The notes under the pieces: generated by a model
The model's input: only the letters and a program-made list of their open reading frames with translations
The model's database searches: none
What the model was told of the DNA's origin: nothing
Assembly (NCBI GenBank): GCA_964016885.1
Contig: OZ024740.1
Span: 345,092,001 to 345,156,000 of the forward strand
Source of the DNA: Eledone cirrhosa
Taxonomy: Eukaryota
DNA length: 64,000 bases
Reading direction: 5' to 3'
Program-made: the position numbers and the translations under genes
Shown here: positions 2,235 through 50,851 of the stretch, piece after piece
How positions within the stretch are numbered: position 1 is the first letter of the stretch
Layout: every line of letters begins with the position of its first letter

Positions 2235-3140
2235 GAGATGTGTCAAAAAAGTTCCAGGACTGATGTCACAAAAGATTTATTTCAAACCCAAACTTCACAC
2301 TAAGAGTGTTCTCCTTCAAATAATCCCCCTGGTGTCTAATGCACTTTTCCATTCTTTTCTGCCAGGCTTGCACACACTCCTGGAGGGACTCTTCCGGGAT
2401 CCTCCGCAGTTCCGTCGTCACGGCCTTTTTGTTGTCGTCCACGTCTTCAAAACGGGTCCCCTCCGTGTCGTACTCGAAGATCCATCACCGGTGATGACTG
2501 TCCCTAGCAAGTCTGGTTCCGTTTCAAGACGCTCGAGGATGTCCTGGCACACTGACATGCGTCGACACTTCTGGTCATCGTTCAGCAGTTTTGGCACCGT
2601 CTTCACGCAGATTTTCCGCATGTCCAAATCTTCAGTAAGAATCTTCCAGACGCTGTCCCGATTCATGCCCAGCTCATTTGCCATCAGTCGAACAGTCAGG
2701 CGACGATCGCTACGCACCATCTGCCTGACGCGCTCAACGTTGACCTCAGTCCTGGTTGTTGAGGGCCTTCCGCTCCTAGGGTCATTTTCCACGTCCTCGC
2801 GTCCTTCTTTAAACCTCTTGCACCACCCAAAGACACGTGAGCGTGACATCGTCTCACCTCCATACACTTGCTGCAGCAATCCCAGTGCTTGCGACGGAGT
2901 TTTCCCCAATCGTCCCAGAAACTTCAAGTTTCTTCGTTGCTCTGTGCTCATTGCTTGACGACCTGAAACAGAAGACATGCATATAAAATTATGAAGAAAA
3001 GAGTTTGATCGCAGTAGAGAGCTAAGATTACAGTTACATACTCCAGGGGGATTACTTTGAAGGAGAAAACTCTTAGTGTGAAGTTTGGGTTTGAAATAAA
3101 TCTTTTGTGACATCAGTCCTGGAACTTTTTTGACACACCT

Positions 3141-3142
<2 letters not shown>
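2234..3142 (-). mobile_element. Mariner (Tc1/mariner) transposon, internally deleted, about 105-bp TIRs
   Basis: TIRs gtgtcaaaaaagttccaggactgatgtc...ccccctgg at both ends in TA context. Transposase starts at ATG 2951 (MSTEQRRNLKF..., DPRSGRPST, VPKLL, VITGD), then jumps to a C-terminal frame (GTRFEDVDD...WQKRMEKCI). The rest of the catalytic core is missing. Confidence 0.93.
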
Positions 3143-3172
<30 letters not shown>

Positions 3173-3202
3173 AAATATGTATGTAAATATCGTAGTCCAC
3201 CT

Positions 3203-3366
3203 GGTTGTGGTGGGTCTGGTAACTTTGTTAGAACACAATGTGTCATTGTAGGTATCGTTGCAGTTAAATTCGGCAGTGTGACCGGTAGTTTTTGTGGTAG
3301 TTGAACACCGCCTATGGTAGCCTCGAAGAAAATCCGTCCGGGTTACAGAGTCATTTACGTATAAAT
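3203..3366 (-). other. Possible coding exon (unidentified)
   Basis: Acceptor ttttcaatttttattgttcaaacag, open frame DLYVNDSVTRTDFLRGYHRRCS...CSNKVTRPTTT, weak donor CAG|GTGGAC. No homology recognised. Confidence 0.25.
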
Positions 3367-12537: not shown

Positions 12538-12540
<3 letters not shown>

Positions 12541-13068
12541 ATCAAGGTTTAGCAAATAAGAAAAAGTTTCAAAATAAATTTTTAAAAATTAACTGTACTC
12601 ACTATGGTTACCTTTACCGAATCGGTTTCGAGTCTCAAAAACAAACGGATAGTCCTTACGGCCATCCATTGCAAAGATAAACTCTCGTCAGAAGGATCTT
12701 TTCACTCGGAGAATATAAAATTCCTGAGTTCAAATTACGAACTGGCGCTATTCAAAATTGTTCCCGAGATGAGAATAAATGATGTGGAATCAATTCTGTC
12801 CAGTGCCGTGCGTAAAGATACAAGCAAAGGCAGGGAGGTCAGTCTACTACCACTATAACTAGCAGAAGTCAGAACGACCAGATTTTTTCTCGACCAAGAG
12901 GAGATTAATAATAAAGTATATATCCCTACGCGCAAAGCGGCTAGGGACACATTTATTGTCCAAATATATGACAATGTGGTTCAATGGCAGGTTAATAAAT
13001 TAACGAGCCAGAACATATATAATCTAGGTTTAGCAAATAAGAAAAAGTTTCAAAATAAATTTAAAAAA
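12538..13068 (-). mobile_element. Non-coding hammerhead insert in (TA)n: 481-bp unit plus about 50-bp terminal direct repeat
   Basis: atc(a/t)aggtttagcaaataagaaaaagtttcaaaataaattt at 12541 and 13022. TA tracts on both sides. Confidence 0.85.
12611..12695 (-). ncRNA. Canonical type I hammerhead ribozyme
   Basis: Minus strand: cctt-CTGACGA-GAGT...ACTC-GAAA-CCG att CGG-TA-aagg. All three stems pair. Predicted cleavage GUA| between 12615 and 12614. Confidence 0.88.
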
Positions 13069-13162
<94 letters not shown>

Positions 13163-13280
13163 AACATCATAAACAATCACAGGGAATAATTTGTAAAGTG
13201 TGTAAGCAGACACAGCTAGGTAGGTAACTCATTAAAGTTTAACTAGAACTTCAAATATAGATACCTTTTAAAATGATTAA

Positions 13281-13371
13281 TCTCCTTTGTATATATTTGT
13301 TTAAATACAAAATATATTTCACCATTAATCGGTAAATCACAGTAGTAAAATCGGATGATCACCAAAGGAGA
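13281..13371 (-). ncRNA. Hammerhead ribozyme, G3-C8 core variant (copy 1)
   Basis: Minus strand: tctcctttg-GTGATCA-t cc...gg t-GAAA-tatatt...aatata-TA-caaaggaga. Confidence 0.75.
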
Positions 13372-13822
13372 AGATCCAACTATCTGTGTTTACACAGCAA
13401 ATGCAAATCTGTGAATGACTCGTACCACGTGTTGCATTTAAAAAAAAAATACACACATCACACAGCGTCATCCCAGTAGCGTGAATAGGATTATCGACAG
13501 CTAGACATAGCAGCCGAGTCCATTCAACCGAGTTAGCTCTACAATTAAGGGGCCGTATATATATCCAAAATTAAATTAAGGGTGTCATGTCTGAGAGACA
13601 TGCGCCATATCCACTGCAGAATAAGCTCAAAGATTCCAATGAATAGATCCGAGCATTTTATATCAACTAGAAATAGATTGACATATATATATATATATAA
13701 AATAAACATATGAAACAATCACAGGGAATAATGTGTAAAGTGTGTAAGCACACACAGCTAGGGAGGTACCTAATTGAAGTTTAACTAGAACTTCAAATAT
13801 AGATACCTTTTAAAATGATTAA

Positions 13823-13915
13823 TCTCCTTTGTATATATTGGTTTAAATAAAAAATATATTTCACCATTAATAGGTAAATCACAGTAGTAAAATTCCGGAT
13901 GATCACCAAAGGAGA
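13823..13915 (-). ncRNA. Hammerhead ribozyme, G3-C8 core variant (copy 2)
   Basis: Same core and stems I/III as copy 1. Confidence 0.75.
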
Positions 13916-14421
13916 AGATCCAACTATCTGTGTTTACACAGCAAATGCAAATCTGTGAATGACTCGTACCACGTGTTGCATTTTTTAAACAAAGGAGATT
14001 AATCATTTTAAAAGGTGTCTATATTTGAAGTTCTAGTTAAACTTTAATTAGTTACCTACCTAGCCAAATTATTCCCTGTGATTATTTCATATGTTTATTT
14101 TATATATATATATATGTCAATCTATTTCTAGTTGATATAAAATGCTCGGATCTATTCATTGGAATCTTTGAGCTTATTCTCCAGTGGATATGGCGCATGT
14201 CTCTCACACGTGACACCCTTAATTTAAATTTGGATATATATACGGCCCCTTAATTGTAGAGCTAACTCAGTTGAATGGACTCGGCTGCTATTTCTAGCTG
14301 TCAATAATTCACGCCACTGGGATGACGCTGTGCGATGTGTGTATTTTATTTTTAAATGCAACACGTGGTACGAGTCATTCACAGATATGCATTTGCTGTG
14401 TAAACACAGATAGTTGGATCT

Positions 14422-14514
14422 TCTCCTTTGGTGATCATCCGTGATTTTACTACTGTGATTTACTGATTAATGGTGAAATATATTTTTTATTTAAACCAAT
14501 ATATACAAAGGAGA
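14422..14514 (+). ncRNA. Hammerhead ribozyme, G3-C8 core variant (copy 3)
   Basis: Stem I 14422-14430/14506-14514 (9 bp), GTGATCA 14431-14437, GAAA 14475-14478, 7-bp stem III, AUA triplet ending at 14505. Confidence 0.78.
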
Positions 14515-14776
14515 TTAATTATTTTAAAAGGTATCTATATTTGAAGTTCTAGTTAAACTTTAATGAGTTACCTACCTAGCTGTGTGTGCTTACACACTTT
14601 ACAAATTATTCCCTGTGATTGTTTCATATGTTTATTTTATATATATATATATATATATATCAATATATTTTGAGTTGATATAAAATGCTCGGATCTATTC
14701 ATTGGAATCTTTGAGCTTATTCTGCAATGGATATGGCGCATGTCTCTCAGACATGACACCCGTAATTTAATTTTGG

Positions 14777-14853
<77 letters not shown>

Positions 14854-42795: not shown

Positions 42796-42924
42796 TATAT
42801 ATACATTAATAATTACATACGCGTATATATGTAAGTATTACAATATTTCATATATTTGATTTATTTACAAGCACACAGACATACATACAAACCCACACAC
42901 TCAAGCACGGATATATATGAATTT

Positions 42925-44780
<1,856 letters not shown>

Positions 44781-44995
44781 GTTTATACATATTGTATATC
44801 GATGATAGATTTTTCTGTCTGTTTTCAGTATGAATGGTATCGATGCCCACATGATATTCTATGCAATGAGCATTGTACTTTTTTCACATTAACCTGATGT
44901 AAATCTGTCATGTACTTTCTTTTTATTATGCTTCATTTTATATGTGTATGTATGAATGCATGTATGTAGCTTAGTATACATTGTCATATATACAT

Positions 44996-45011
44996 ATGTA
45001 TGATATGTATG

Positions 45012-45098
<87 letters not shown>

Positions 45099-45176
45099 AC
45101 GTATTTATATATATATATATACATATATATATGTATGTGTATATATATATAATGTATGTGTATATATATATATATG

Positions 45177-45220
<44 letters not shown>

Positions 45221-45230
45221 TGTATGTGTG

Positions 45231-45264
<34 letters not shown>

Positions 45265-45324
45265 CATATATATACGATATATATATATATACATATATAT
45301 AAATATAAATATATACACACACAC

Positions 45325-45381
<57 letters not shown>
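44996..45381. repeat. Interrupted (TA)n microsatellite
   Basis: Direct reading. Confidence 0.95.
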
Positions 45382-45383
<2 letters not shown>

Positions 45384-45918
45384 TATGCATATATTTGTTT
45401 ATTTTAAATACTCTGCTTCTTCACCACGCATACACTCAAAATACTCAAAATGAAATGATATCACGGCGTATTCTGGTAACGTTTACAAATTGTCTTTTTA
45501 TCATTTCATATACTACTGCTTTTCTTCTTTGTATTTTTTAAATATATTACCATATTCAATAAAGAATTATGTACTATTGGAAGTGTCATATCTTGTCACA
45601 ACCAATATGATGTATTTGTTAGGGCGTTATTTCATCTTTCTTTCTATTTTGCTGTAGCTGTATTGGTTGTAATGGAAGAAGTTGTTGTTTTAGTTGATGT
45701 TGTTGCTGATGTTGTTGCTGTTGTTGTTGATGATGGTGATGATTATAATGGGGATGTGTAAAGCTGTCATTGTTACTCATCACGTGATGTCACCATGCTT
45801 CTCCTGTAAGTTCGGCGCGCGGGTGGTTATGTGAGAATGTTGTTGTGAATCCGTGTGCTGCCAAGGAACGTGGGTGTAACCCTGTTGTAATGTACGGTCC
45901 CTCTGGAGTTGCTAAACG

Positions 45919-45991
45919 TCATGGATTCAGGAGTTGCAAGGAGTTGGAATCATATCTCCATGCATAAAATGGCCGTCTGGATTGAGGGTAA
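45919..45991 (-). other. Possible terminal coding exon (unidentified)
   Basis: Strong acceptor ctttacttttctttatatttcatag. Frames xTLNPDGHFMHGDMIPTPCNS* or YPQSRRPFYAWRYDSNSLQLLNP*, followed by CAA-rich UTR-like sequence. Confidence 0.35.
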
Positions 45992-46547
45992 CTATGAAAT
46001 ATAAAGAAAAGTAAAGAATCAGTAAATAATATTTTCTGGAGTAAATATTTGAAAAAAACGTTGAATATATATTGAAAAGAACATAATTATTTATTAAGCA
46101 AAATCTCGCATAGGAGTATGGAATTATATATTTATATTTTATCTTTCCATCATTAACGTCAATTTACATCGCACATAGCTATAGGAGATAGGTTTCGACT
46201 AGAGAGAAAAGATTTAAAGAAACTGTCATCGGAATAATAATAGATGAAATAAAAGTACGTATGGGACTAAAAATATTTCAAAGAGAAATTAAATAAGTTA
46301 GAGAAATTAAATAAGGTAGAATGAACAAAGAGAACGAAAGAAAACTTAGCTTAAAGGTAAAGAGAATAAGAAGGAATTACGGAAGATAACTATCTGGTGA
46401 AAAAAGGTGTTAGAAATAGTTTCAGAATTCAGCCAGCTTGAATTCACCCCATGGTTTGAGATGATGACAGATATATAAACATAGAAAATCTCAGCCTTCT
46501 TTGCAACTCTTTAACCAAATATGTAATATATACTGCACTTGTATATG

Positions 46548-46586
<39 letters not shown>

Positions 46587-46755
46587 GTGTGCTTGTGTGT
46601 GTATGTTTGTACGTATGTATGTGTGTATATATGCGTATTTGTGTGTGTTTGTATATATAAAGTGAGTTGGCCACGTTAAAATCTTAACCGCCAGATAAAT
46701 ACCAACGGTAGGTAGCTATATAGGCCAAATTTACCCACATATTAGAAGTTACATC

Positions 46756-50851
<4,096 letters not shown>

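Follow-up and report, generated by a model that had tools for sequence, protein, structure and literature searches.

Breakpoints at the predicted cut site of an unusual hammerhead ribozyme in a two-armed, non-coding repeat family of Eledone cirrhosa

Can the ends of genomic repeats record that the RNA from which they were copied had cut itself? The question is raised by a locus within a 64,000-nt window of the Eledone cirrhosa genome (3.0 Gb; assembly GCA_964016885.1, contig OZ024740.1, positions 345,092,001 to 345,156,000 of the forward strand, the window being the whole stretch that was analysed). There, positions 13141-14785 consist of two arms of one 542-544-nt repeat unit arranged head to head. 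A preliminary description held that the plus arm begins at the predicted cleavage site of a hammerhead ribozyme carried by the unit, and saw in this the trace of a reverse-transcribed RNA with a ribozyme-made 5' end. The features of the locus are given below, in window coordinates; the unit itself is numbered from the predicted cut, +1 being u1.

13069..13157, no strand: (AT)n microsatellite into which the minus arm runs at its 3' end; likely target and primer
13141..13983, minus strand: minus arm of about 1.55 units (from u~393 to u544, a complete unit, then u1-149)
13281..13371, minus strand: type I hammerhead copy, core G3-U-G-A-U7-C8-A at 13362-13356, predicted cut between 13290 and 13289
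13823..13915, minus strand: type I hammerhead copy, core 13906-13900, predicted cut between 13832 and 13831
13984..13989, plus strand: six junction bases of disputed origin (loop-III remnant with a 10-nt deletion, slipped minus-arm end, or insertion)
13990..14785, plus strand: plus arm, from +1 through one full unit to u276
14422..14514, plus strand: type I hammerhead copy, helix I formed by 14422-14430 with 14506-14514, core 14431-14437
14475-14478 and 14503-14505, plus strand: motifs GAAA and AUA of the preceding hammerhead, predicted cut between 14505 and 14506
14777..14802, no strand: (AT)n microsatellite, then (TG)n, at the 3' end of the plus arm

On the plus strand the unit's +1 sequence begins at 13990 and at 14506; on the minus strand it begins at 13831 and at 13289. 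Homology of the plus arm to the upstream unit ends between 13989 and 13990, which is indeed the position of the predicted cut of a type I hammerhead. From there the arm, which carries a 21-nt deletion at u76-96, extends to u276, one of two fixed 3' ends of the family; the minus arm enters (AT)n at the unit's own TA run, u133-149. All three ribozyme copies at the locus are intact and were read through. The plus arm crosses the second, intact ribozyme between 14505 and 14506, as the preliminary description had it, and the minus arm passes two predicted cut sites uninterrupted. The three copies also have in common variants found in at most 2% of family copies, and these point to one source sequence; on the choice between a circle and a linear multimer, the two informative partial variant sharings at the locus conflict.

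Units of the family are 542-546 nt long, each with one type I hammerhead, and arms in the sample hold at most 2.4 of them. The locus has no ORF of at least 168 aa among the longest 140 of the 319 ORFs listed, so the unit is taken to be non-coding, and no terminal direct repeats were seen in the decompositions of sampled loci. Exact matches to the +1 motif number 440, 447 and 1,066 arms in three subfamilies, amounting to about two thousand family copies. Next to the minus arm, between (AT)n runs at 12540-13070, lies another unit, unrelated to the first, which is about 480 nt long and bears a terminal direct repeat of 50 nt. By eye it contains a putative canonical C3-G8 type I hammerhead on the minus strand (core 12691-12685), which is absent from the lowest-energy fold, and a 70-80% similar copy of this unit adjoins another member of the family (L028). 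Elsewhere the window holds about 8 kb of degenerate (AT)n (42911-50843) and, at 2421-3227 on the minus strand, an ORF with Mos1/mariner-type HTH domains, a transposase fragment.

The position of the predicted cut depends on the register of a ribozyme whose core is unusual. The covariation set was drawn from 244 pattern-matched copies by requiring at least 7 of the 9 helix I pairs, which left 225. Positions 3 and 8 form a Watson-Crick pair in 213 of these (U-A in 115, G-C in 91, C-G in 7) and mismatch in 12, where 103 pairs would be expected under independence; the 3-8 states mark lineages, so the figure stands for few compensatory events, not 213. The literal C3-G8 core is present in only 7 of the 225 copies and G-C or U-A in 206, while position 7 varies freely and the remaining core letters were fixed by the search pattern. 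Helix I, with 9 pairs of which pairs 4 and 6 covary T-A/C-G, is open-ended, flanks the cut and was present in three of three folds. Helix III has 7-9 pairs, the first three imposed by the pattern and pairs 4-9 kept or changed to G-U. Helix II is weak, consisting of a short CC/GG pairing beside the core without G10.1-C11.1, and the folds disagree on it. Rfam at gathering score gave no match in the window. All told, the predicted register is well supported by the pairing pattern, and so, therefore, is the predicted cut after AUA. A scrambled hammerhead of Type-SGC was considered and rejected, since the blocks follow the usual order of a type I hammerhead and the register is fixed by the covariation at 3-8; CTGATGA, the sole literal motif searched for under that reading, is not present in 13141-14785.

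What the joint at this one locus records is less clear than its position suggests. The homology break at 13990 agrees with a plus arm that starts at +1, but the arm may instead begin at 13984. Nor is the ambiguity confined to 1 nt, as had been thought: A13989 fits either arm, and all six bases of 13984-13989 are disputed as well. Both full copies at the locus have a run of three As where the original parse needs a six-A run in the minus arm, and at the seven multi-copy loci examined, among them this one, copies differ in the length of this run by at most 1 base and in no case by 3. The minus arm therefore most likely ends at 13983, and the six bases need another origin. Together with the next four bases (13984-13993) they match exactly the part of loop III that lies 16 to 7 nt upstream of the cut. 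The match is to a loop-III variant private to the locus, carried by the hammerhead copy at 13281..13371 (positions 13290-13320) and found in only 2 of about 170 copies tallied.

A deletion has close to an even chance of being the origin of these bases. The plus arm would then start not at the cut but at 13984, in loop III, 16 nt before it, and a 10-nt deletion between 5-nt direct repeats would have taken the rest of helix III, a course of events to which we give slightly less than an even chance. It accounts for 13984-13993 without a mismatch, by way of a variant that is present at the locus, and it has company in short deletions ending at +1 at other loci (L114, L115); the original parse, for its part, requires a three-A run to have grown to six, a change unseen among the seven multi-copy loci, though these are a small sample. 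Yet the deletion requires the variant of the 13290 copy, as the other two local copies give only a 2-nt repeat, and it could itself be a template jump from a cut end. A slipped end of the minus arm is a less probable source of the six bases, and an insertion is improbable. That the joint records a cleaved RNA end is possible, not established, and we judge it less likely than not because of the alternative parse and because the partner arm reads through two cut sites. Contigs X1-X3, from one sample, do not span the joint, a result that bears neither on expression nor on a possible misassembly. There is very little chance that the inversion was made at the DNA level, by fold-back or by a template switch in an existing array, with a joint that involved no RNA intermediate. 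The arms do make a long palindrome, and one rare variant is common to the mirror-image pieces 14506-14785 and 13141-13289, but such sharing can have come later, through gene conversion, neither arm mirrors the other, and the arrangement is family-wide, with fixed TA-primed ends at 173 on one side and 276 on the other.

This family-wide arrangement was examined in a sample of 129 loci, found by motif on the two largest contigs. Head-to-head arms, with one copy inverted and 5'-truncated, are present in 84 of the 129. Unit positions 173 and 276 are the two fixed points at which arms pass into TA repeats, with a different one for each arm of a locus: both 3' ends fall at u173 or u276 in 49 loci, and 47 of these have one of each (P=4e-12). 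A Penelope-like enzyme has been described that uses two internal start sites with extension on both target strands (PMC11167929), and inverted truncated copies and a (TA)n bias are described for Penelope-like elements (PMC8557442). The two-site layout matches such an insertion, with two internal start sites and both target strands extended, and from it we infer a Penelope-like enzyme as the mobiliser of the unit. A linked autonomous element was not found in the 48 of 319 flank ORFs scanned, which gave one GIY-YIG match, unlinked, and no match to a solved structure. This match is a 5'-truncated ORF with a C-terminal GIY-YIG domain (Penelope-like) at L533:1764-2783, which lies on the same TA tract as a subfamily 3 arm; over 9.9 kb this region has no sequence in common with the unit. 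Divergence between arms is 0.045 at the same locus and 0.074 between different loci, and the partner arm is the nearest one in only 12/34.

The preliminary description had proposed that the breakpoints of all copies be mapped onto the unit, a spike at the cleavage site being expected if cut RNA is copied and a uniform spread if it is not. The map shows something of each: ends are found all along the 544-nt unit, but they are not uniform, and there is an excess at +1. Unbiased 5' ends came from 170 arms followed upstream from two anchors (the first 100 matches listed per anchor), with duplicates merged, the plus arm of this locus excluded and 9 ends corrected by hand. Among 100 arms anchored at +1 to +26, 99 continue upstream past the cut, the sole exception being the plus arm of this locus. 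Read-through of intact ribozymes is thus the rule, and the suggestion of a multimer or a circle as template holds. Upstream of +1, 138 ends fell within 33,126 nt, a mean break rate of 0.42% per nt, and against this background the lone match at +1 in this locus, already acknowledged as a single observation, is weak by itself. The rate rises to 0.78% per nt in u1-17 (12 ends, 93 arms, P=0.045) and 0.71% in u458-476, the 5' strand of helix I, and is 0.12% in u528-544, a value that is partly an alignment artefact of TA matches. Peaks at u458-476 and u504, to which many loci contribute, likely reflect cDNA refolding or stalling.

The excess at +1 was counted genome-wide with targeted patterns, each bearing a non-reference base two positions before the anchor, and the matches were classified by eye. 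Junctions at +1 number 9 in 19 matches in the G3-C8 subfamily, including this locus, 8 in 15 matches in the second subfamily, and 19 events in 41 matches in subfamily 3, where duplicates were merged and two ambiguous TA-flank cases dropped. A second pattern added L110 and L117, with two small deletions, among 8 matches; the segmental duplicates L370/L371 and L447-450 were each counted once. Without this locus, arms at +1 come to 8/~454, 8/447 and 19/1,062, or 1.8% in each subfamily, the ~454 for the G3-C8 subfamily being an estimate (440 measured). For all three subfamilies this makes 35 of ~1,963 arms, where 13.5 (~0.7%) would be expected (P=8e-7 against the mean rate), and the excess is still significant at a count of 30 (P=7e-5). 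The G3-C8 subfamily alone, with 8/~454, gives P=0.015, and is not significant (5/454, P=0.2) when three long-microhomology junctions are removed.

Control anchors just upstream yielded 1 junction in 12 matches at -7 and 3-4 in 33 at -8, or ~0.3%, compared with which +1 shows a five-fold excess (Fisher P=4e-5) on control denominators that were estimated from motif ratios, not measured. At +4 in the G3-C8 subfamily there are 3-4 junctions in 9 matches. At +3/+4 in subfamily 3 there are 15 in the 30 of 31 matches examined, five of them partners of +1 arms, a rate not far below that at +1. At +23 there are 6-7 in 32 matches, and at +8 in subfamily 3 the count reaches 32 in 48, the +7/+8 peak being higher per pattern than that at +1. 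Ten junctions in 15 matches fall at -41 (u504), a non-cleavage position inside helix II, and with the rate of this hot spot as the null the excess at +1 is not significant (P=0.16). Two further control patterns were swamped by other subfamilies and dropped as controls, their loci revealing subfamily 3. The +8 control in subfamilies 1 and 2 was contaminated (100 of 206 matches listed, of which 30, plus 8 chosen loci, were examined), and no figure beyond "high" among the matches listed is given for that rate. A single master copy behind the recurring junctions was also considered and rejected, as eight loci with the same +1/+4 joint lack a common private variant and differ at polymorphic sites, which indicates independent events.

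The shape of the peak is informative as well as its height. Apparent ends at +1 and -1 stand in the ratio 23:12, compared with 19:40 at control anchors (P=0.002), and 23:12 is the ratio predicted from chance matching of one A. Both arms end within ~15 nt downstream of the cut in 50 loci (18 + 32), as against 22 loci in the next window downstream and 3 in u496-510, the helix II hot spot. Positions farther upstream are reached by fewer arms, but this shortfall appears too small to explain 50 versus 3. Three loci in subfamilies 1 and 2 have both arms reaching +1 or beyond, L117 being a blunt +1/+1 palindrome, and in one list of joint stops near the cut eight loci have an arm end at +1/+2 (two pairs of them probably duplicates) and two pass the cut. 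Where an inversion lies at +1, the partner arm ends at u1-16 in 12/30, compared with 12/93 sampled arms (P<0.01, the test having been run with 11/30). Most joint-stopping ends lie at the palindrome u8-15, which is also the base of helix I, so trimmed run-off products and stalling predict the same there.

Several junctions depart from these types. Four (L162, L174, L420, L476) contain tandem re-copies of the u8-15 palindrome, which we take to resemble the templated insertions of polymerase-theta end joining. Three same-strand jumps, two of them deletions and one a 14-nt duplication, end exactly at +1 (L044, L354, L369) and are possibly template jumps from the cut end. At L343 the two arms stop alike at u544, which lies 3' of the unit's body on its side of the cut, and are followed by the same flank in both orientations, an arrangement that may be a larger duplication.

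We lean toward regarding the unit as a Penelope-mobilised retrozyme for which uncut or circular RNA is the usual template and cut RNA an occasional one. Self-cleavage of its tandem transcripts would be partial, and circles may form from some monomers, as has been shown for other retrozymes (PMC7229834). The (TA)n target would be nicked on both strands by a Penelope-like enzyme, with priming at u173 and u276. Where the template is a circle or an uncut multimer, the cDNAs would cross the ribozyme and halt at structure or randomly, whereas on cut RNA both would run off at +1. The cDNA ends would be joined end to end by short microhomology, sometimes with templated repeats (L162), and run-off ends would be joined either blunt or once trimmed back to the palindrome at +8 to +15. 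The ribozyme-made 5' end once proposed for this locus is supported in part at the level of the family, by an excess with a sharp edge at +1 in three subfamilies, the G3-C8 subfamily included; +1 is one of several peaks, and the joint at the locus itself is only possibly a cleaved end.

Because the other peaks, at +7/+8 and inside helix II, are as high or higher, RNA-structure stalling remains a real rival, though we judge it rather unlikely. All peaks, +1 among them, would then mark places where the reverse transcriptase, at work on uncut templates, stalled at structure in the RNA or the cDNA; microhomology would have set the joint, and +1 would be no more than the place where helix I ends and the ribozyme core begins. 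The peaks at u7-9 (helix I base and palindrome), u504 (helix II) and u458-476 (the other helix I strand) cannot be cleavage, the rate at +1 is not above that at u504, and two +1 junctions (L041, L047) use the 9-nt self-complementarity of helix I. Against copying from cut RNA, unprocessed RNA is described as the main in vitro substrate of a Penelope-like enzyme, with no RNA-seq reads ending at its cut (PMC11167929). But stalling at helix III would allow the unpaired A17 to be copied, favouring -1, and it is +1 that is favoured; -7/-8, inside helix III, have the lowest rate measured. The u504 hot spot has only 3 joint-stopping loci compared with the 50 near the cut, and the other 8-nt palindrome, u17-24, has no perfect joint among the 22 loci of the next window downstream. 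Simple truncations to flank, moreover, also stop at +1 (L248, L250, L443; L373 less clear). A fuller proposal stands at about an even chance: that in vivo self-cleavage by natural hammerheads with G3-C8 and U3-A8 cores has left its record in the genome, that cut linear and uncut or circular RNA are both copied by a Penelope-like enzyme from two fixed start sites, one per DNA strand, and that an insertion whose two arms both end within +1 to +15 holds the 5' part of the cut monomer in full.

The role of the hammerhead in Penelope-like transposition has been described as unclear (PMC8557442), and in a single in vitro Penelope-like system cleavage was described as dispensable (PMC11167929). A breakpoint edge at the cut, equally frequent in three subfamilies, would speak, at the level of sequence, for cut RNA as a genuine though minor template in vivo. 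It would likewise be a sign that the G3-C8 core, found described in open-access text only as a partly active laboratory mutant, works in nature. Should insertions of the kind just named hold the whole 5' part of the cut monomer, breakpoint maps can be used to assay the ribozyme activity of retrozymes. The family offers, besides, three natural states of one catalytic pair for comparison. What is new here is the three-state covariation at 3-8 together with the edge at +1; the open-access literature searched yielded neither a natural G3-C8 family nor a comparable breakpoint map. C3G/G8C is described as giving a partial recovery of cleavage in vitro (PMC11167929), and U3-A8 is a known natural hammerhead variant (PMC3088659, PMC4209133). 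In natural U3-A8 hammerheads, as described by Perreault et al. 2011 (PMC3088659) and for Schistosoma PLEs (PMC4209133), the 3-8 core pair likewise covaries, whereas the present family combines three Watson-Crick states and has an abundant subfamily marked by G3-C8.

Among mobile elements, the closest likeness in form is to the metazoan non-LTR retrozymes (Cervera and de la Pena 2020, PMC7229834; Li, Clavereau, Pollet 2026, 10.64898/2026.07.22.740005), which are described as short, non-coding, AT-rich units with one type I hammerhead per unit and tandem copies, and for which Penelope-like mobilisation from linear and circular RNA has been proposed. The present family differs in that its core is G3-C8 or U3-A8 in most copies, so descriptors requiring CUGANGA would miss it, which suggests that animal retrozymes are undercounted by such searches. 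It differs also in its long helix III (8-9 bp), by which it is predicted to fold as a monomer, and in that most of its loci are two-armed inversions; genomic breakpoints mapped onto the cut site were not found in the accessible text of these two reports. With Penelope-like elements (Craig et al. 2021, PMC8557442; Frangieh et al. 2024, PMC11167929; Cervera and de la Pena 2014, PMC4209133) it has in common, as far as they are described there, the inverted 5'-truncated copy, the (TA)n target bias, two internal reverse transcription start sites with both target strands extended, and a hammerhead in the repeat. In contrast to them the unit has no ORF, and its start sites are ~100 nt apart, not 30-40. 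No sign of cut RNA as template is reported in PMC11167929, whereas here a minority of copies end at the cut. A precedent for a ribozyme cut that sets the genomic 5' junction, with joining by chance microhomology, is the HDV-like ribozyme of the R2 retrotransposon, as described by Eickbush et al. 2013 (PMC3774820); in R2 the cut defines full-length elements, while in the present family it marks ~2% of arms and most read through.
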